A stretch of DNA of 44,708 bases from Escherichia phage Ayreon. The stretch's first letter is position 1; every line of letters begins with the position of its first letter. The position numbers and the translations under genes are program-made. Under the pieces are notes generated by a model that saw nothing but the letters and a program-made list of their open reading frames with translations, searched no databases and was not told the DNA's origin. This document shows, in pieces, positions 4,353-44,604 of the stretch. The stretch is taken from sequence record MF807953; one strand, given 5' to 3'.

Positions 4353-6311
4353 ATGCAGGCTGGTCACCAGAGTGACGCGGATATTTATATTTATGACGAG
4401 ATTGGTTTCTGGGGTGTTACAGCGAAGCAGTTTATCAGTGATCTGAATGCACTGGGCGATATCACCCATATTAATCTCCATATTAATTCACCGGGTGGCG
4501 ATGTCTTTGAAGGCATCGCCATTTTTAATGCACTGAAAACACATGGTGCGTCCATTACCGTTTATGTCGACGGTGTGGCGGCGTCAATGGCGTCGGTCAT
4601 TGCGATGGTGGGAAACCCGGTCATTATGCCGGAAAACACCTTCATGATGATTCATAAACCATTTGGCTTTACGGGCGGTGATGCGGAGGACATGCGCACC
4701 TATGCCGACCTGCTCGATAAAGTTGAGGCGGTTCTGTTACCCGCTTATGCACAGAAAACCGGGAAAACCACCGATGAAATTGCTGCCATGCTGGCGGATG
4801 AGACCTGGATGTCTGGTGCCGAATGTCTGGCACATGGATTTGCTGATCAGGTAACGCCAGCCGTTAAGGCAATGGCATGTATTCAGTCAAAACGTACAGA
4901 GGAATTTAAAAAGATGCCGGAATCCATTCGAAACATGATTACTCCGCCACGCAACAGTGCTCCACGCGTACAGGATAATGAACCTGAAGCCTCCCGGACG
5001 CCAGTGCAGGCAGCAGCACCCGTGGTGGATGAAAACAGCATCCGTGCGCAGGTACTGGCAGAGCAAAAAGCGCGTGTAAACGGTATTAATGATCTGTTTG
5101 CCATGTTTGGCGGGCGTTATCAGACGCTGCAGGCTCAGTGTCTTGCCGATCCTGAATGTTCGCTGGAGCAGGCCCGCGAAAAGCTGTTGAACGAGATGGG
5201 GCGCGAGTCCACGCCATCCAATAAAAATACCCCGGCTCATATTTATGCCGGTAACGGTAATTTTGTGGGGGACGGGATCCGCCAGGCGCTGATGGCGCGT
5301 GCCGGATTTGAAAAAGCCGAACGTGATAATGTCTACAACGGGATGACCCTGCGTGAATATGCCCGTATGTCACTGACTGAACGGGGTATTGGGGTTTCCA
5401 GTTATAACCCGATGCAGATGGTCGGTGCGGCGTTCACACACAGTACGTCTGACTTCGGTAATATTCTGCTGGATGTTGCGAACAAAGCCATTCTGCAGGG
5501 CTGGGAAGATGCCCCTGAAACCTATGAACAGTGGACGCGGAAAGGTCAGTTGTCTGATTTTAAAATTGCCCATCGTGTGGGTATGGGGGGCTTCAGTGCT
5601 CTGCGTCAGGTGCGTGAAGGGGCGGAATATAAATACGTCACCACCGGAGATAAACAGGCCACTATTGCACTGGCGACCTATGGCGAGCTGTTCAGTATCA
5701 CCCGTCAGGCCATTATCAATGATGATCTGAATATGCTGACCGATGTCCCGATGAAGCTGGGCCGTGCGGCGAAATCCACTATTGCCGATCTGGTTTATGC
5801 CATTCTGACGTCTAACCCGAAAATCTCCACAGATAATGTAAGTCTGTTCGATAAAGCGAAACATGCAAACGTACTGGAGAGCGCTGCAATGGACGTGGCA
5901 TCGCTGGATAAAGCCCGCCAGTTGATGCGCGTTCAGAAAGAGGGGGAGCGTCATCTGAATATTCGTCCTGCGTTCGTACTGGTACCGACGGCGATGGAGT
6001 CTGTTGCTAACCAGGTCATTCGCTCCTCAAGTGTCAAGGGGGCTGACATTAACGCCGGTATTATTAACCCGGTGAAAGATTTTGCGACCGTTATTGCAGA
6101 GCCTCGTCTTGATGATAACAGCCAGACCACCTTCTACCTGGCTGCGTCAAAAGGCTCCGATACGATTGAAGTGGCTTATCTCAACGGTGTGGATACGCCA
6201 TATATTGATCAGATGGAGGGCTTCAGTGTGGATGGCGTGACAACGAAAGTGCGTATTGACGCCGGTGTCGCGCCAGTTGATCACCGCGGTCTGGTGAAAT
6301 GTACGGCGTAA
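4353..6311 (+). CDS. Prohead protease (ClpP/S14-like) fused to major capsid protein
   Basis: 652-aa continuous ORF; start chosen at MQAGHQ (ATG 4353) just after the portal stop. N-terminal part has ClpP-like features (GVAASMAS serine segment, MIHKP histidine segment); the C-terminal ~360 aa is capsid-like. A rho-independent terminator follows. Confidence 0.7.
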   Translation: MQAGHQSDADIYIYDEIGFWGVTAKQFISDLNALGDITHINLHINSPGGDVFEGIAIFNALKTHGASITVYVDGVAASMASVIAMVGNPVIMPENTFMMIHKPFGFTGGDAEDMRTYADLLDKVEAVLLPAYAQKTGKTTDEIAAMLADETWMSGAECLAHGFADQVTPAVKAMACIQSKRTEEFKKMPESIRNMITPPRNSAPRVQDNEPEASRTPVQAAAPVVDENSIRAQVLAEQKARVNGINDLFAMFGGRYQTLQAQCLADPECSLEQAREKLLNEMGRESTPSNKNTPAHIYAGNGNFVGDGIRQALMARAGFEKAERDNVYNGMTLREYARMSLTERGIGVSSYNPMQMVGAAFTHSTSDFGNILLDVANKAILQGWEDAPETYEQWTRKGQLSDFKIAHRVGMGGFSALRQVREGAEYKYVTTGDKQATIALATYGELFSITRQAIINDDLNMLTDVPMKLGRAAKSTIADLVYAILTSNPKISTDNVSLFDKAKHANVLESAAMDVASLDKARQLMRVQKEGERHLNIRPAFVLVPTAMESVANQVIRSSSVKGADINAGIINPVKDFATVIAEPRLDDNSQTTFYLAASKGSDTIEVAYLNGVDTPYIDQMEGFSVDGVTTKVRIDAGVAPVDHRGLVKCTA

Positions 6312-32435: not shown

Positions 32436-32898
32436 AAAAAGAGCGGTACCAGCCGGAAGCAAGTGTACAAACTGGTACCGCCAAAGCAGTGGCTGTTGTG
32501 GTGGGGTTGTCACTCAGGCGTATGGTCAACCTGACAATCCGGTGTCCTCAACGGGGAAAGAGTAACCCCGCCATACTTACCGCCGCGCCATTTCGCGGAT
32601 TACCACAACGCTGAGAGCACTTAGCCAGTTACGGCACCACACTTTGTCGCGGTTCCATAAATGCCCTCATCGTTGCACCCTGGTCTCTTCCCAGGCGTCA
32701 AACCGGATCGCCACGCTGGTTAGGCGTCTTATCAGCATCATCATTGACTTGCACATTCCGGCTACCTGGTTTGTTTGCCCGAGCAAGGAGTGGATTGTCC
32801 CCTTTAACGTCCCCAGACCGCTAACGACGCATGTGCCATACGCCGTGTTACAACCAAATTTAGTTTAATCTTGCCTGTGTTATGTTTCTTTTAGATAC

Positions 32899-39444: not shown

Positions 39445-40197
39445 ATGAACCTTGAAGCCTTACCAAAATATTACTCCCCAAAATCTCCAAAATTGAGCGA
39501 TGACGCACCGGCGACAGGCTCAGGTGGTTTAACGATTACGGATGTGATGGCTGCGCAGGGGATGGTGCAGTCGAAAGCACCGCTTGGGTTTGCCTTATTC
39601 CTGGCAAAAGTTGGTGTTCAGGATCCTCAATTTGCGATTGAAGGTCTGCTCAATTACGCGATGGCACTGGATAACCCGACATTGAACAAATTGAGTGAAG
39701 AAACCCGGTTACAGATCATCCCTTACCTTGTGAATTTTGCCTTTGCTGATTATTCCAGGTCTGCGGCAAGTAAGGCTCGCTGTGAGCATTGTGCTGGTAC
39801 TGGATTTCATAATGTATTGCGCGAAGTGGTGAAACACTCCAGAAGCGGGGAATCTGTTATCAAGGAAGAGTGGGTGAAGGAACTATGTCAGCATTGTCAT
39901 GGTAAGGGAGAAGTCAGCACAGCGTGCAGAGGGTGTAAGGGTAAAGGTATTGTCCTGGATGAAAAAAGGACCCGGCTTCATGGCACGCCTGTTTATAAGA
40001 TTTGTGGGCGTTGCAATGGAAACCGGTTTAGCCGTTTACCAACCACACTGGCGCGGCATCATGTCCAGAAGCTGGTACCAGACCTGACGGATTATCAGTG
40101 GTACAAAGGATATGCAGATGTCATTGATAAACTGGTTACAAAGTGCTGGCAGGAAGAAGCATATGCAGAGATACAATTGAGAAATGTGACAAGATAA
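39445..40197 (+). CDS. Q: Late gene antiterminator Q
   Basis: 250 aa from MNLEAL with a GGAG ribosome-binding site; Cys-rich zinc-binding region CEHCAGTG...CQHCHGKGEVSTACRGCKGKG...CGRCNG; followed by a candidate pR' and tR' terminator. Confidence 0.75.
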   Translation: MNLEALPKYYSPKSPKLSDDAPATGSGGLTITDVMAAQGMVQSKAPLGFALFLAKVGVQDPQFAIEGLLNYAMALDNPTLNKLSEETRLQIIPYLVNFAFADYSRSAASKARCEHCAGTGFHNVLREVVKHSRSGESVIKEEWVKELCQHCHGKGEVSTACRGCKGKGIVLDEKRTRLHGTPVYKICGRCNGNRFSRLPTTLARHHVQKLVPDLTDYQWYKGYADVIDKLVTKCWQEEAYAEIQLRNVTR

Positions 40198-40228
40198 ATG
40201 GTTTTCGCCGAAGATGACGACATGATGC

Positions 40229-40257
40229 TTGCATTTTTCAAAAAATATGGATAAGAT
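40229..40257 (+). promoter_or_regulatory. Candidate late promoter pR' (Q-utilisation region)
   Basis: TTGCAT - 17 bp - TAAGAT between the Q stop and a strong terminator. Confidence 0.4.
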
Positions 40258-40304
40258 TTTCCCAACGATGGGCTTTGTATGTCTACCGTTGATAAGATTT
40301 AAGA

Positions 40305-40329
40305 ACCCGCCACTGAGCGGGTTTTTTTG
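40305..40329 (+). terminator. tR'-like rho-independent terminator
   Basis: Hairpin acccgc-cactga-gcgggt followed by a T7 run. Confidence 0.8.
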
Positions 40330-40486
40330 TGCCAGATGTCTCATGAAACTATGAAATGGATTGGTGCGTTAAACATTTTTTCTTATTATCTTTTAGATTT
40401 TGGAGAGATGGTTAACGTCTGTATTCCAGAAACTCGATGATTATTTAATAAATTAGTTTCAATGATGCTTCTAGGTTATGACTGTA

Positions 40487-40903
40487 ATGAAAAAGGTATT
40501 AATAGCAGCGATAGGTTTTTGTTTAGTTGGTTGTGCAGGTATGAAATTACCTGAGTATTCGCAAGTTAAAGCAAGTCCGTATTATACAGATTGCCGTGCG
40601 TTTGCCATGGATGTTTATAAAAATGATGGATACAGCAAAATTGCGAAAACTACTATCCTTAGCATGGATGATGTGAAGGCTAGATATATTGTGACAGGGT
40701 GTGTAGTTGCTATGGGGAAAAACACTGTAGAGGAAATCAAAGCTGATCTCTCTGCTAAAGGGAGTTCTTTTGGGCTTATCAGTGGAGCTTGTTCTAGTGC
40801 GGCATGTCGGGTTGATGTAGAGCAGCAAATGAACGCTTATGTACTTGGTAGTTATTATGCTGCAAATAAAAAATTCCCGGATAAAATGAAAGCAGAGTTT
40901 TAA
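40487..40903 (+). CDS. Lipoprotein (moron cargo)
   Basis: 139 aa from MKKVLIAAIGFCLVGCAG: signal peptide with lipobox LVGC; AT-rich codon usage unlike the flanking phage genes; bracketed by two copies of the same terminator hairpin. Confidence 0.7.
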   Translation: MKKVLIAAIGFCLVGCAGMKLPEYSQVKASPYYTDCRAFAMDVYKNDGYSKIAKTTILSMDDVKARYIVTGCVVAMGKNTVEEIKADLSAKGSSFGLISGACSSAACRVDVEQQMNAYVLGSYYAANKKFPDKMKAEF

Positions 40904-40980
40904 GTAAACCTTGTTTTCGATTATATGTCGAAGATAAATGTTAGTAACGGCATAATAAGTAAATATATAGCTGTGATAGC

Positions 40981-41005
40981 AACCCGCCACTGAGCGGGTT
41001 TTTTG
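40981..41005 (+). terminator. Second copy of tR'-like terminator
   Basis: About 27 bp near-identical to 40305-40329 (aacccgccactgagcgggttttttgt). Confidence 0.8.
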
Positions 41006-41102
41006 TACCTGTAAACTTGGTGCAGTACAGTAAACACGCTGGTGGTCGTGAATACTGACTTTTTATCTTGCTGGCTTTTTAGACAAGAGTTATTGGTATG
41101 TC

Positions 41103-41330
41103 ATGTTAACCAGAAGGGAAAAAGACATGCTAAAACAGCAAGATATGACAGAAACCGCCGCCGCAGTCCTTCATTTCTTACCTGCTGACAAGTGGGTAAC
41201 GCCACGCATGATGACGAGAACTACCGGAGTAAGCGAAGCCCGGTGCCAGTTAATACTGACTCAGTTAGTTCTGGCGGGTCTGGCGAAGGATAACGGCGGG
41301 TACGGGAATAAATTCAGACGCTGCCAGTAA
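41103..41330 (+). CDS. Hypothetical small protein (75 aa)
   Basis: ORF with a GAAGGG/AAAGA-type ribosome-binding region upstream, positioned ahead of the methyltransferase. Confidence 0.4.
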   Translation: MLTRREKDMLKQQDMTETAAAVLHFLPADKWVTPRMMTRTTGVSEARCQLILTQLVLAGLAKDNGGYGNKFRRCQ

Positions 41331-41480
41331 TGGCGGTTTCCTGCTGTGAAAATGGGCGGCTGGTGGGTGTTGGTAGCACCTGCCAGCCATTCGCTCATGC
41401 TTACTGGTCACAAGCGAACCATGGCCCACTGCTTTAGCGCAAAAGCAGAGTGAGCCTACCAGAGTTACGCTTACTGATCC

Positions 41481-42533
41481 ATGAAAAATACTGTAAAAAT
41501 AAACAGTGTTGATTTAATCAACGCTGATTGCCTGCATTTTATTCAGTCCCTGCCTGATGATTCCATTGACCTGATTGTTACCGATCCGCCGTACTTCAAG
41601 GTGAAACCCAACGGCTGGGACAATCAGTGGAAAGGGGACGAAGATTACCTTAAGTGGCTGGACCACTGTCTGGCCCAGTTCTGGCGGGTGTTAAAACCTG
41701 CCGGAAGCCTTTACCTGTTCTGTGGGCATCGCCTGGCATCTGATATTGAGATCATGATGCGTGAACGTTTCAACGTGCTTAACCATATCATCTGGGCGAA
41801 GCCGTCCGGACGTTGGAATGGGTGTAATAAAGAAAGTCTGCGCGCATATTTTCCTGCCACAGAGCGCGTTCTGTTTGCTGAACATTACCAGGGGCCATAT
41901 CGCGGCAAAAGTGACGGCTATGCAGCAAAAGAAAGGGAACTCAAACAGCACATAATGGCACCGCTGATATCGTATTTCAGGGATGCTCGTGCCGAACTGG
42001 GTATAACGGCAAAACAAATTGCCGAAGCCACAGGTAAGAAAAATATGGTTTCCCACTGGTTTGGTGCCAGTCAGTGGCAGTTGCCGAATGAGGCTGACTA
42101 TCGGAAGTTACAGGCACTGTTTTCCCGTATAGCGGCAGAGAAGTTTCAGGAACAACAACTGGAACAACCACACCACCAGCTGGTGGCATCTTATGATTCA
42201 CTGAATCGTAAATATTCTGAATTGCTGGATGAGTTTAAATCTCTCCGGCGCTATTTCTCCGTATCAGTCTCCGTGCCTTATACCGATGTCTGGATGCATA
42301 AACCCGTTCAGTTCTACCCGGGGAAACATCCGTGTGAGAAACCGGCGGATATGCTCAGGCAAATAATCAATGCCAGTAGTCGACCTGGTGATCTGGTTGC
42401 TGATTTTTTTATGGGATCCGGTTCCACAATAAAAGCAGCAATGGCGCTGGGGCGTCGGGCCTTAGGTGTTGAGCTTGAGTCAGAGCGGTTTAACCAGACA
42501 GTGAAAGAGATAAACGAGCTGGTGGGGAAATAA
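41481..42533 (+). CDS. DNA methyltransferase (N6-adenine/N4-cytosine amino-MTase, orphan)
   Basis: 350 aa; catalytic motif IVTDPPYF near the N-terminus and AdoMet-binding motif DFFMGSGST near the C-terminus; no restriction endonuclease partner nearby. Confidence 0.85.
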
Positions 42534-42600
42534 TCTGGTGGCCACGTCAGGTGGCCTTTTTATTTCCATTACACAGCACCCGCATCTGCGAGGTGGGGTT

Positions 42601-42816
42601 ATGAAATCCATGGATAAGTTAACAACGGGTGTCGCCTATGGCACCTCAGCAGGTAGTGCCGGGTACTGGTTTTTACAGTTGCTCGATAAAGTCACGCCCT
42701 CACAGTGGGCGGCAATAGGTGTGCTGGGTAGTCTGGTATTTGGCCTGCTGACGTACCTGACAAACCTTTATTTCAAGATTAAAGAAGATAAGCGCAAGGC
42801 TGCGAGAGGTGAATAA
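42601..42816 (+). CDS. S: Holin (phage 21 S21-type pinholin)
   Basis: 71 aa from MKSMDK (dual-start motif); sequence [62 protein letters not shown] matches my recollection of the phage 21 holin. Confidence 0.85.
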
Positions 42817-43313
42817 TGCCTCCATCATTACGAAAAGCAGTTGCTGCTGCTATTGGTGGCGGAGCAATTGCTATAGCATCAGTGTTAATCACTGGCCCAA
42901 GTGGTGACGATGGCCTGGAAGGTGTCAGCTACATACCATACAAAGATATCGTTGGCGTATGGACTGTATGTCACGGACACACCGGAAAAGACATCATGCT
43001 CGGTAAAACGTATACCGAAGCAGAATGCAAAGCCCTCCTGAATAAAGACCTTGCCACGGTTGCCAGACAAATTAACCCGTACATCAAAGTCGATATACCG
43101 GAAACAACGCGCGGCGCTCTTTACTCGTTCGTCTACAACGTGGGTGCTGGCAATTTCAGAACATCGACGCTTCTTCGCAAAATAAACCAGGGCGATATCA
43201 AAGGCGCATGTGACCAGCTACGTCGCTGGATATACGCTGGCGGTAAGCAATGGAAAGGCCTGATGACTCGTCGTGAGATTGAGCGTGAAGTCTGTTTGTG
43301 GGGGCAACAATGA
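42816..43313 (+). CDS. R: SAR endolysin (lysozyme with N-terminal signal-anchor-release domain)
   Basis: 165 aa; Gly/Ala-rich N-terminal hydrophobic SAR segment [20 protein letters not shown] followed by a lysozyme-like domain. Confidence 0.85.
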
Positions 43314-43777
43314 GCAGAGTAACCGCGATTATCTCCGCTCTGGTTATCTGCATCATCGTCTGCCTGTCGTGGGCGGTCAATCATTACCGTGATAACGCCA
43401 TCGCCTACAAAGAACAGCGAGATAAAAAAGTCAGTGAGCTGAAGCAGGCGACCGCCACCATTACTGACATGCAGCAGCGCCAGCGTTCTGCTGATGCACT
43501 CGATGCTAAATACACGAAGGAGTTAGCTGATGCGAAAGCTGAAAATGATGCTCTTCGGCGCAAGCTTGATAATGGTGGTCGGGTGTTCGTCAAAGGAAAA
43601 TGCCCTGTGCCATCCTCAGCCGAAACCTCCAGCGCCTCCGGCATGGGCAATGATGCCACCGTCGAACTCTCTCCAGTTGCTGGACGAAACGTTCTCGGTA
43701 TCCGGGACGGAATTATCCGCGACCAAACAGCACTGAGAACGCTTCAGGAATACATCAGGACGCAATGCCTTCGATGA
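43310..43777 (+). CDS. Rz: i-spanin Rz
   Basis: Start [30 protein letters not shown] matches lambda Rz; ATGA overlap with the endolysin stop. Confidence 0.85.
43530..43736 (+). CDS. Rz1: o-spanin Rz1 (lipoprotein embedded in +1 frame of Rz)
   Basis: MRKLKMML start, lipobox VVGCSS and a Pro-rich segment [11 protein letters not shown], entirely inside Rz in another frame. Confidence 0.75.
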
Positions 43778-44406
43778 TAGCGATAATTTTACTCATCATC
43801 CTTCACATCTGGCTCTGTAGACAGGATGGTGATCACTTCTGGAGTGAATCCAGATTAAACATCTCATTGCTGATGCTTGATATTGAGCATCTTGCGCGCG
43901 GTAAGGGGCTGCGTTGAGATAAGGGCCAGTCATTACAAATACCAGGATTTAGCCTCGCATTCGCGGGGCTTTTTATTGCCATTACAAAAGCCACTCCCTA
44001 CAGAGTGGCTTTGATAATGGTTTATACCCTACACGGGATAGCTTAACTGATATCCCTTTTAACGGATAAAGGTATTCAAGCCTGACACATCATGCGCTGT
44101 ATCGTCGCCGTATTCCCGTATTAACAGAGACCGTAGCCCGACGGGGAACTCCTTCTGCGCGAGTGTGCGGGAATAATCAAAAACGATGCACACCGGGTTT
44201 TTACCGCGTTTATGGTTCGCGGGTTTGTCCCTCATGCTCGCCAGTCCTGTGCGGGGGTGGAAGAAACAGGACACTTACACAGATTCTTGTGGGCACGATG
44301 CTATGCCTTTCTGGATTATCCCGATGCCATTCATGCAAGGCGTTGTATCAGACGTTCGTCAGAGCTGTCAGGCTGACGGGTCCTCCCGGTGGGGTGGCCT
44401 GCCACG

Positions 44407-44494
44407 GGGTGAAGGAACTATGTCAGCATTGTCATGGTAAGGGAGAAGTCAGCACAGCGTGCAGAGGGTGTAAGGGTAAAGGTATTGTGCTGGA
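44407..44494 (+). repeat. Displaced copy of an internal Q-gene segment
   Basis: 88 bp identical except for one mismatch to 39872-39959 (inside Q, encoding ELCQHCHGKGEVSTACRGCKGKGIVL). Confidence 0.9.
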
Positions 44495-44558
44495 GACATT
44501 ACCGGATATTCTGGAACGTGACTGCGGCCTGCAGCCTGCTGCTGTGAGCCGTGTTCAG
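44487..44558 (+). repeat. Displaced copy of an internal small-terminase gene segment
   Basis: 72 bp identical to 359-430 (inside the Nu1-like gene, encoding LETLPDILERDCGLQPAAVSRVQ); overlaps the Q copy by an 8-bp microhomology gtgctgga. Confidence 0.9.
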
Positions 44559-44604
44559 CCGTGGAAAAAGGCTAGTTTTTGAAATTTCATTCGTCATCAC
44601 CACT

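Follow-up and report, generated by a model that had tools for sequence, protein, structure and literature searches.

A predicted lipoprotein gene in a probable moron-type cassette between two terminator copies downstream of Q in Escherichia phage Ayreon

We analyzed a stretch of 44,708 nucleotides (nt) from Escherichia phage Ayreon (sequence record MF807953), hereafter the window, and focused on a segment downstream of the late-gene antiterminator gene Q in which a predicted lipoprotein gene lies between two copies of an intrinsic terminator. The segment is probably a moron-type accessory cassette that occupies the slot between the terminator tR' and the holin gene, and this reading includes a proposed route of assembly, mode of expression, and role in the cell envelope. 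A discrete cassette is favored because close relatives with an empty site exist. Morons are characterized by extra DNA, deviant guanine-cytosine (GC) content, their own terminator, their own promoter, and expression from the repressed prophage (PMC3594210, after Juhala et al. 2000). Three of these five features were found here, namely DNA that is extra relative to close relatives, deviant GC content, and a separate terminator. In the window, the genes of a lambdoid phage stand in virion order: terminase comes first, followed by the tail, integrase, immunity, and replication genes and then by Q and the lysis genes. Within the late operon, whose parts from Q to the third terminator are on the + strand, the order is the late promoter PR', tR' (terminator copy 1), the lipoprotein gene, terminator copy 2, orf75 and a methylase gene, a third terminator, and then the genes for holin, signal-arrest-release (SAR)-type endolysin, and Rz/Rz1, and a terminator stands at the end of each accessory block. 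The part containing Q, the lipoprotein gene, and the methylase gene (39445-42533) is 99.6% identical to Enterobacteria phage mEp460, in which the counterpart of the lipoprotein gene is gp51, a "hypothetical protein".

The cassette (40328-40980, 653 bp) is AT-rich, as the initial annotation of this DNA had noted; its GC content is 35.8% against 50.1% for the whole window, and the third codon positions of the gene are 28.8% GC. It is bounded by an exact 24-nt direct repeat, AACCCGCCACTGAGCGGGTTTTTT, at 40304-40327 and 40981-41004, the two copies being 677 nt apart. No third copy was present within ≤3 mismatches anywhere in the window, and none of 100 shuffles gave any match. The copies had been described, accurately, as near-identical: the repeat itself is exact, but copy 1 is followed by seven T and GTGCC and copy 2 by six T and GTACC. 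The first copy had been placed one base off and starts at 40304. Both copies fold as intrinsic terminators with a GC-rich stem of 7-10 bp, a 6-nt loop, and a U-tract (folding energies of -13.9 kcal/mol for copy 1 and -11.2 kcal/mol for copy 2), and the record of phage SfV annotates the same hairpin as a putative rho-independent terminator. Copy 2, being a canonical hairpin with a U-tract, provides the cassette with a terminator of its own and forms its end; in other phages it is also the left boundary of the orf75-methylase module. A transposon-like insertion was considered and rejected: neither a transposase, an integrase, nor a terminal inverted repeat accompanies the segment, and 24 nt exceeds the length of a target-site duplication.

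The gene upstream of copy 1 is a genuine Q. Its product (39445-40197, 250 amino acids (aa)) belongs to the lambda-Q family with a DnaJ-like zinc-finger insert and matched Pfam PF03589 (Antiterm, E 9.6e-54), PHROG 127, and lambda Q in PDB 7UBM (E 1.3e-37), which confirms that the lipoprotein gene lies downstream of Q. The best sigma-70 match in the interval from Q to the terminator was TTGCAT-17-TAAGAT (40229-40257, score 8.4), a constitutive PR'-type late promoter with the -35 hexamer at 40229-40234, a 17-nt spacer, and the -10 hexamer at 40252-40257. The two hexamers line up one-for-one with those of lambda PR' (TTGACT / TAAATT). By alignment with lambda (NC_001416), AACGATGGG at 40264-40272 corresponds to the first transcribed bases and matches the beginning of the lambda 6S/PR' transcript without a difference. 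The hairpin of copy 1 lies ~40 nt past the predicted transcript start. Because Q is genuine and both the PR' hexamers and AACGATGGG match lambda, copy 1 is predicted to act as the tR' of a lambda-like PR'. In lambda, the region of AACGATGGG contains the sigma-dependent pause where Q loads, and the PR' leader is the 194-nt 6S RNA. A PR' leader stopped at copy 1 would be ~65 nt. A search of 39900-42900 against Rfam gave nothing above threshold and only sub-threshold attenuator-leader-like matches on the PR' leader (40260-40330). The PR' -10 region, GGATAAGATTT (40248-40260), recurs as TGATAAGATTT (40289-40301) just 5' of the terminator stem, at about +26 to +38, and the latter may be a second -10-like, sigma-dependent pause element.

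An empty site with a single terminator, as anticipated in the initial annotation, was found in SfV and vB_EcoM-720R4. Both phages have the same DUF968 gene, Q, orf47/orf75, and methylase gene, with one terminator and without the cassette. Alignment revealed that the 720R4 junction has on its left what precedes copy 1 and on its right what follows copy 2, which is exactly the product expected of a deletion mediated by the repeat. The layout with two terminators may thus be ancestral or assembled from modules, SfV and 720R4 having arisen by deletion between the 24-nt repeats without any insertion or duplication at this site, and to this alternative we give appreciable, though minority, weight. 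It agrees with the finding that the terminator goes with the Q module in some phages and with the orf47-methylase module in others. The arrangement is also old, since a Salmonella phage with a different Q shares the succession of terminator, lipoprotein gene, and terminator together with a methylase remnant, and the synonymous divergence is saturated. However, the cassette is set apart from the phage backbone as foreign DNA by its low GC content, so that entry happened at some point, and the terminator variant of SfV (a G in the loop, seven T, and GTGCC) is not a simple deletion product of the window. Gain and loss are, moreover, not mutually exclusive.

Comparison with further phages places recurrent breakpoints at the same hairpin. 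In phage cdtI and five other phage records, homology to the window begins exactly at 40981, and upstream of this point cdtI contains a different Q plus two reverse-strand genes. In Lys8385Vzw, 2H10, HannyBb, and PhiR63_1, by contrast, the homology of the Q module stops at 40326-40336, and Lys8385Vzw carries stx1AB where the window has the lipoprotein gene. PhiR47_1 and phiSTEC1575-Stx2k keep Q, the terminator, the lipoprotein gene, and the second terminator, after which come tRNA genes and, in the latter phage, also stx2k. The empty-site sequence was matched by 1762 E. coli genomes, and most of the sampled partial matches started at query positions 103-107 (the first base of the terminator) or ended at 130-139 (its last bases). 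These comparisons show that one and the same terminator is a shared boundary where many lambdoid phages switch modules. The cassette would then have been gained, and could be lost, by homologous exchange within ~24-31 nt of terminator sequence. The initial annotation had proposed insertion of a moron by recombination at tR'; the assignment of copy 1 as tR', the foreign nature of the cassette, and the recurrent breakpoint bear this out, but neither a duplication event nor its direction is established. Instead of a duplication, three modules could each have brought the same boundary terminator.

A Chi site, GCTGGTGG, lies at 41038-41045, 34 nt after copy 2, and the homology of PhiR47_1 stops at its 3' end. 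The window contains 18 copies of Chi (14 on the + strand) against 1.6 expected from shuffles, an ~11-fold excess, and those in the interval between Q and the holin gene S are at 41038, 41359, 42173 (- strand), 42179, and 42518. This excess agrees with the description of a Chi-rich class of lambdoid phages (PMC12315714). The Chi site just downstream of copy 2 may aid the exchange, and a further, rather unlikely possibility is that the tR' hairpin and the adjacent Chi together form a portable site where cargo of the late operon, stx for instance, docks and is exchanged.

Only one credible open reading frame (ORF) is present between the terminator copies, 40487-40903, and the mEp460 annotation uses the same start. 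The initial annotation had correctly called it a lipoprotein ORF but had given it 139 aa; the product is 138 aa, the 139 codons including the stop. An AGG lies 11 nt ahead of the ATG at 40487, whereas an in-frame ATG three codons upstream (40478), which would give 141 aa, leaves no room for a ribosome-binding site. That this is a chance ORF in an AT-rich spacer between terminators, rather than a functional gene, is extremely improbable. The same AT-rich DNA does give a long antisense ORF (40547-40990), and every source calls the gene a "hypothetical protein" or, by automatic rule, "Lipoprotein". Against this, the ratio of nonsynonymous to synonymous divergence is only about 0.1 (0.08-0.12 in comparison with Salmonella and Serratia homologues) with saturated synonymous sites, full-length homologues retain the lipobox and four Cys, PHROG 4748 matches over the full length, and the fold is predicted with confidence. 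Alignment of 14 homologues left 21 invariant columns. The sequence comparisons thus indicate a real gene under purifying selection.

The N-terminus of the product (MKKVLIAAIGFCLVGC followed by AG) contains two Lys, a 12-residue hydrophobic stretch, the lipobox L-V-G-C, and Ala at +2. The charged n-region, the h-region, and a lipobox of the form [LVI][ASTVI][GAS]C within the first ~35 residues are all present, and Gly15-Cys16 of the lipobox as well as mature Cys 36, 72, 102, and 107 are invariant or nearly so across the homologues, in agreement with the signal peptide and LVGC lipobox of the initial annotation. At -4 the window allele has Cys, a residue that the strict PROSITE PS51257 pattern does not permit there; S or G occupies this position in other alleles. 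The protein is predicted to be exported by Sec and processed by Lgt and LspA at Cys16. The residue after the lipobox Cys governs Lol sorting (the +2 rule), and the predicted lipoprotein, which has no Asp at +2, would be sorted to the outer membrane. The mature part is a predicted helical domain of ~122 aa. The AlphaFold2 model has five helices, a mean predicted local distance difference test (pLDDT) score of 83, and a predicted template-modeling score of 0.78, pLDDT being <50 for residues 1-16 only. The model suggests that the four conserved Cys probably lock a compact five-helix domain by two disulfides, and from their positions in the predicted helices we would guess the pairs to be Cys36-Cys72 and Cys102-Cys107.

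In agreement with the initial annotation, which recognized no named family, the only match was to PHROG 4748, a group of unknown function (E 7.5e-91, residues 1-141 on profile positions 1-141). The window protein matched no family in Pfam (E ≤ 10), NCBIfam, or PADLOC (E ≤ 0.1), and the Pfam search of 14 homologues at E ≤ 10 gave chance-level matches only (best E 0.059). The Bor/Iss, TraT, Ltp, and MliC/PliC-type families are represented in Pfam, and none of their profiles matched the window protein at E ≤ 10. Searches of PDB sequences with the protein and with a profile returned chance matches only (ribosomal protein uL14, E ~0.7), comparison of the AlphaFold2 model gave no specific fold match, and no characterized homologue was found in literature searches. 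The gene is widespread and yet has no name, Pfam family, or known relative of solved structure.

A word-indexed search yielded 11 homologue clusters, all from Enterobacterales, and an exhaustive hidden Markov model search of 1.84 billion representatives gave eight proteins, all within the same narrow family. The full-length homologues share 26-77% identity. The cassette occurs at ≥95% identity in 215 of 5426 complete E. coli genomes. The lambdoid context between Q and the lysis genes was found in E. coli, including Stx2c and Stx2k phages, in which both the lipoprotein cassette and stx2 are present, the cassette being upstream of the toxin genes, and in Salmonella, in many serovars of which the gene occurs. 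In Salmonella it stands behind an unrelated DUF1133-type Q, with the same terminator before it, a variant terminator after it, and a methylase remnant downstream. In one such prophage (locus L009), the remnant at 4560-4812 is what is left, at the 3' end, of a homologue of the methylase gene at window 41481-42533, which shows a deletion in an originally similar arrangement of Q, lipoprotein gene, and methylase gene behind a different type of Q. The terminator of the window (40304-40334) and that of this Salmonella cassette (L009:3822-3852) are identical at 28 of 31 positions. This identity stands beside saturated synonymous sites (proportion of synonymous differences (pS) 0.67) and upstream Q genes of different families; functional constraint and repeated recombination at the hairpin cannot be told apart as its cause.

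The remaining contexts lie outside late operons. In Rac-like prophages of Salmonella diarizonae the gene is in the early region and is oriented divergently to a vapBC pair. A homologue after dnaE is carried by about 200 plasmids of Klebsiella, Cronobacter, and Citrobacter that are non-mobilizable and ~110 kb in size, and five related Klebsiella records were deposited as phage genomes. These plasmids are phage-plasmids, which we take to be SSU5-like. An unrelated gene for a 99-aa lipoprotein with an LSGC lipobox and two mature Cys lies 10 nt downstream of the homologue in phage-plasmids (L007:5428-5727 and L008:5428-5727); its product has no Pfam match, and the pair may form a two-lipoprotein operon. 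Serratia homologues are in ordinary chromosomal neighborhoods (efflux pump, rRNA methylase, ferritin), and on one metagenomic contig the homologue has as neighbors a type II secretion cluster and a gene for a lipocalin (Blc-type). The GC content of the gene was 8-16 points below that of its flanks in all 12 contexts compared, including the Serratia chromosomes. Judged from its sequence environment, the gene behaves as a horizontally moving single-gene islet in all of these contexts.

Between the terminator and the start codon, the top sigma-70 score (8.8, against 8.4 for PR') was that of TTGGTG-17-TATTAT at 40361-40389, and two Salmonella cassettes (L009 and L014) have TTGGTA-18-TATCAT at the same distance from the start codon. 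This element, a candidate cassette promoter, probably gives low expression in the lysogen, in which transcripts from PR' would stop at copy 1; copy 2 would keep transcription of the cassette out of the methylase, holin, and endolysin genes. After induction, RNA polymerase modified by Q would read through all three terminators, and the lipoprotein gene would be expressed with the late genes, like stx. In the Rac-like prophages, a promoter of its own is needed because the gene diverges from vapBC. On balance, we lean toward independent low-level expression in lysogens. A rather doubtful alternative is that the gene is a late-gene accessory that is made, like stx, only upon Q-dependent read-through of tR' and that serves lytic growth, for example by receptor masking in the manner of T5 Llp, which would spare progeny from loss on cell debris, or by an effect on the envelope ahead of lysis. 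The gene does lie inside the late operon, with PR' and tR' directly before it and the lysis genes farther downstream, the promoter within the cassette is only a candidate, and in Stx2c and Stx2k phages one late transcript contains the gene and, downstream of it, stx2. A purely late gene, however, would have no need of the downstream terminator, and the promoter-like element upstream is conserved in position. The homologues beside vapBC, after dnaE, and on Serratia chromosomes also speak against this alternative.

The same slot, after the same Q module and tR', is used by the stx1 and stx2 cassettes, which likewise are foreign cargo between PR' and the lysis genes for which read-through dependent on Q is presumed, although their cargo is unrelated to the lipoprotein gene. 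It is also the slot of lambda orf-64. With HK97 gp15 and other morons (Juhala et al. 2000; PMC3594210) the cassette shares extra DNA, deviant GC content, and a separate terminator; HK97 gp15, however, is an inner-membrane superinfection-exclusion protein encoded in the tail operon, and the promoter here is only a candidate.

The least secure step of the proposal is what the lipoprotein does. Its site of action would be the periplasm or the outer membrane, where it would serve as an accessory factor that modifies the envelope. A protective role in the envelope is favored, the analogy being with Cor, Llp, Bor, TraT, and further envelope factors of prophages, and we suggest, only tentatively, that the protein may bind an envelope component and thereby block phage entry or another attack directed at the envelope. 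Serum resistance, superinfection exclusion, and surface exposure, as put forward in the initial annotation, received no support from homology, fold, or context. Lambda Bor/Iss is a classic lysogenic-conversion lipoprotein of the outer membrane and confers serum resistance, as cited in PMC3594210. Like Bor/Iss, the window gene is a small accessory lipoprotein gene near the lysis region of lambdoid prophages, but there is no sequence relationship (Pfam, E ≤ 10), an all-helical bundle is predicted here, and the position and strand of the gene differ. The bor gene lies downstream of Rz on the opposite strand.

Cor of phi80, N15, and mEp167 and Llp of T5, which block the receptor FhuA, are small phage-encoded lipoproteins of the outer membrane that act on the envelope, as is predicted for the protein considered here, and no homology to them was detected in Pfam or PHROG. 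The cor and llp genes adjoin the tail or receptor-binding genes that they match. The window gene, in contrast, is found in the slot between Q and S, in early regions, or next to dnaE and moves independently of tail modules, and downstream of its tail-fibre gene the window showed no Cor-like ORF. It was in the same collection of mEp phages that Cor was described (Uc-Mass et al. 2004, as cited in PMC3594210). A resemblance in location and build extends to two further phage proteins, since the window protein is predicted to be small, lipid-anchored, helical, and located in the envelope: TP-J34 Ltp and T4 Spackle are small secreted or lipid-anchored helical proteins that block incoming phage. Ltp is a lipoprotein (PMC3952083). 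We consider it unlikely, if conceivable, that the family, regarded as restricted to mobile elements of Enterobacterales, represents a novel type of protection factor that acts on the envelope, has a helical fold not described before and locked by disulfides, and might block superinfection or another attack on the envelope. On this view, lambdoid phages, Rac-like prophages, and phage-plasmids would each have captured the gene on their own, and in Stx2c and Stx2k phages it would be co-transcribed with the toxin.

It is still less likely that the protein is an orphan immunity or inhibitor protein against a toxin or enzyme acting in the periplasm (a peptidoglycan hydrolase of a type VI secretion system, a bacteriocin, or a lysozyme), rather than an exclusion or serum-resistance factor. 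Small helical Cys-containing periplasmic proteins are typical of such immunity proteins, and the present protein is small, periplasm-facing, helical, and Cys-containing and is spread on mobile elements and AT-rich single-gene islets. Nevertheless, no effector or toxin gene adjoins it in any context examined, and neither fold nor sequence matched known immunity proteins or lysozyme inhibitors in PDB or Pfam. Nor is the gene tied to one type of endolysin, which is P21-type in the window, glycoside hydrolase 19 in Salmonella, and lambda-type in PhiR47_1. A spanin or lysis role was also considered and rejected, as separate Rz/Rz1 genes are present (43298-43777, with the Rz1-like ORF at 43530-43736) and the cassette accompanies unrelated lysis modules.

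Several observations weigh against the reading of the segment as an inserted, independently expressed moron with an envelope role. A deletion between the 24-nt repeats would yield the very empty site that is seen, so that the site fits either direction of the event. AT-rich DNA commonly contains matches to the promoter consensus, and the candidate promoter is only such a match; a consensus scan found four promoter-like sites against 5.9 expected from shuffles, and 40361-40389 was not among them. The upstream non-coding sequence is 58% identical between E. coli and Salmonella, which is a modest signal; within the gene, only ~33% of the synonymous sites are still identical between the two (pS 0.67). 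The pairing of the disulfides and the sorting to the outer membrane are predictions from general rules. No homology, fold match, or conserved neighbor backs any function. The chromosomal, non-phage copies in Serratia suggest a cellular role unrelated to phage, and in the contexts examined the gene never adjoins tail or receptor-binding genes; both points count against a receptor-matched exclusion factor in particular.

As an element, the moron-type cassette is of an ordinary and well-known kind, and its gene is already annotated, without a function, in mEp460 and hundreds of genomes. Its value is an uncharacterized protein, possibly with a new fold, that travels with Shiga-toxin genes. If the lipoprotein does alter the envelope of the lysogen, a widespread lysogenic-conversion factor would be added to those described. 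The locus illustrates clearly, in a natural setting, by what means the cargo of the stx slot is bounded: cassettes end in terminators that shield the lysis genes, and the exchange of modules at the terminator bears on the movement of toxin and other cargo genes between lambdoid phages.

The block downstream of copy 2 consists of two genes. A 75-aa ORF (41103-41330) matched PHROG 331 (function unknown), had a weak MarR-like match, and is named a TrmB family regulator in one record. It always accompanies the downstream gene for an orphan N6/N4 DNA methyltransferase (41481-42533; Pfam PF01555, E 2.2e-42; PADLOC MTase_II, E 3.3e-152) and may be a small regulator of that methylase. The third intrinsic terminator (42540-42564) lies between the methylase stop at 42533 and the start of the P21-type holin gene, and the SfV annotation carries an equivalent hairpin. 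The real start of the holin gene is the ATG at 42602 (MKSMDK...). The 92-aa holin ORF annotated in mEp460 from a GTG at 42538 would span the third hairpin, and this annotation is probably too long.

Two minor observations concern other parts of the window. A small RNA regulated by ArcA, sRNA-17, is said to lie in an mEp460-like prophage of E. coli K1 (RS218) (PMC7719688). It was rejected as an explanation of the present locus, as its primer maps exactly to ~32443-32468 (+ strand) in the early/immunity region; the second probe of that study had no match in the window within 3 mismatches, and the sRNA-17 locus of the window is thus probably incomplete or 'degenerate'. Near the right end of the window, past the lysis genes, an ORF at 44163-44582 (especially ~44434-44547) repeats a stretch of the zinc-finger region of Q, KELCQHCHGKGEVSTACRGCKGKGIVL, and this partial second copy of Q is possibly a recombination scar or the remnant of another prophage.

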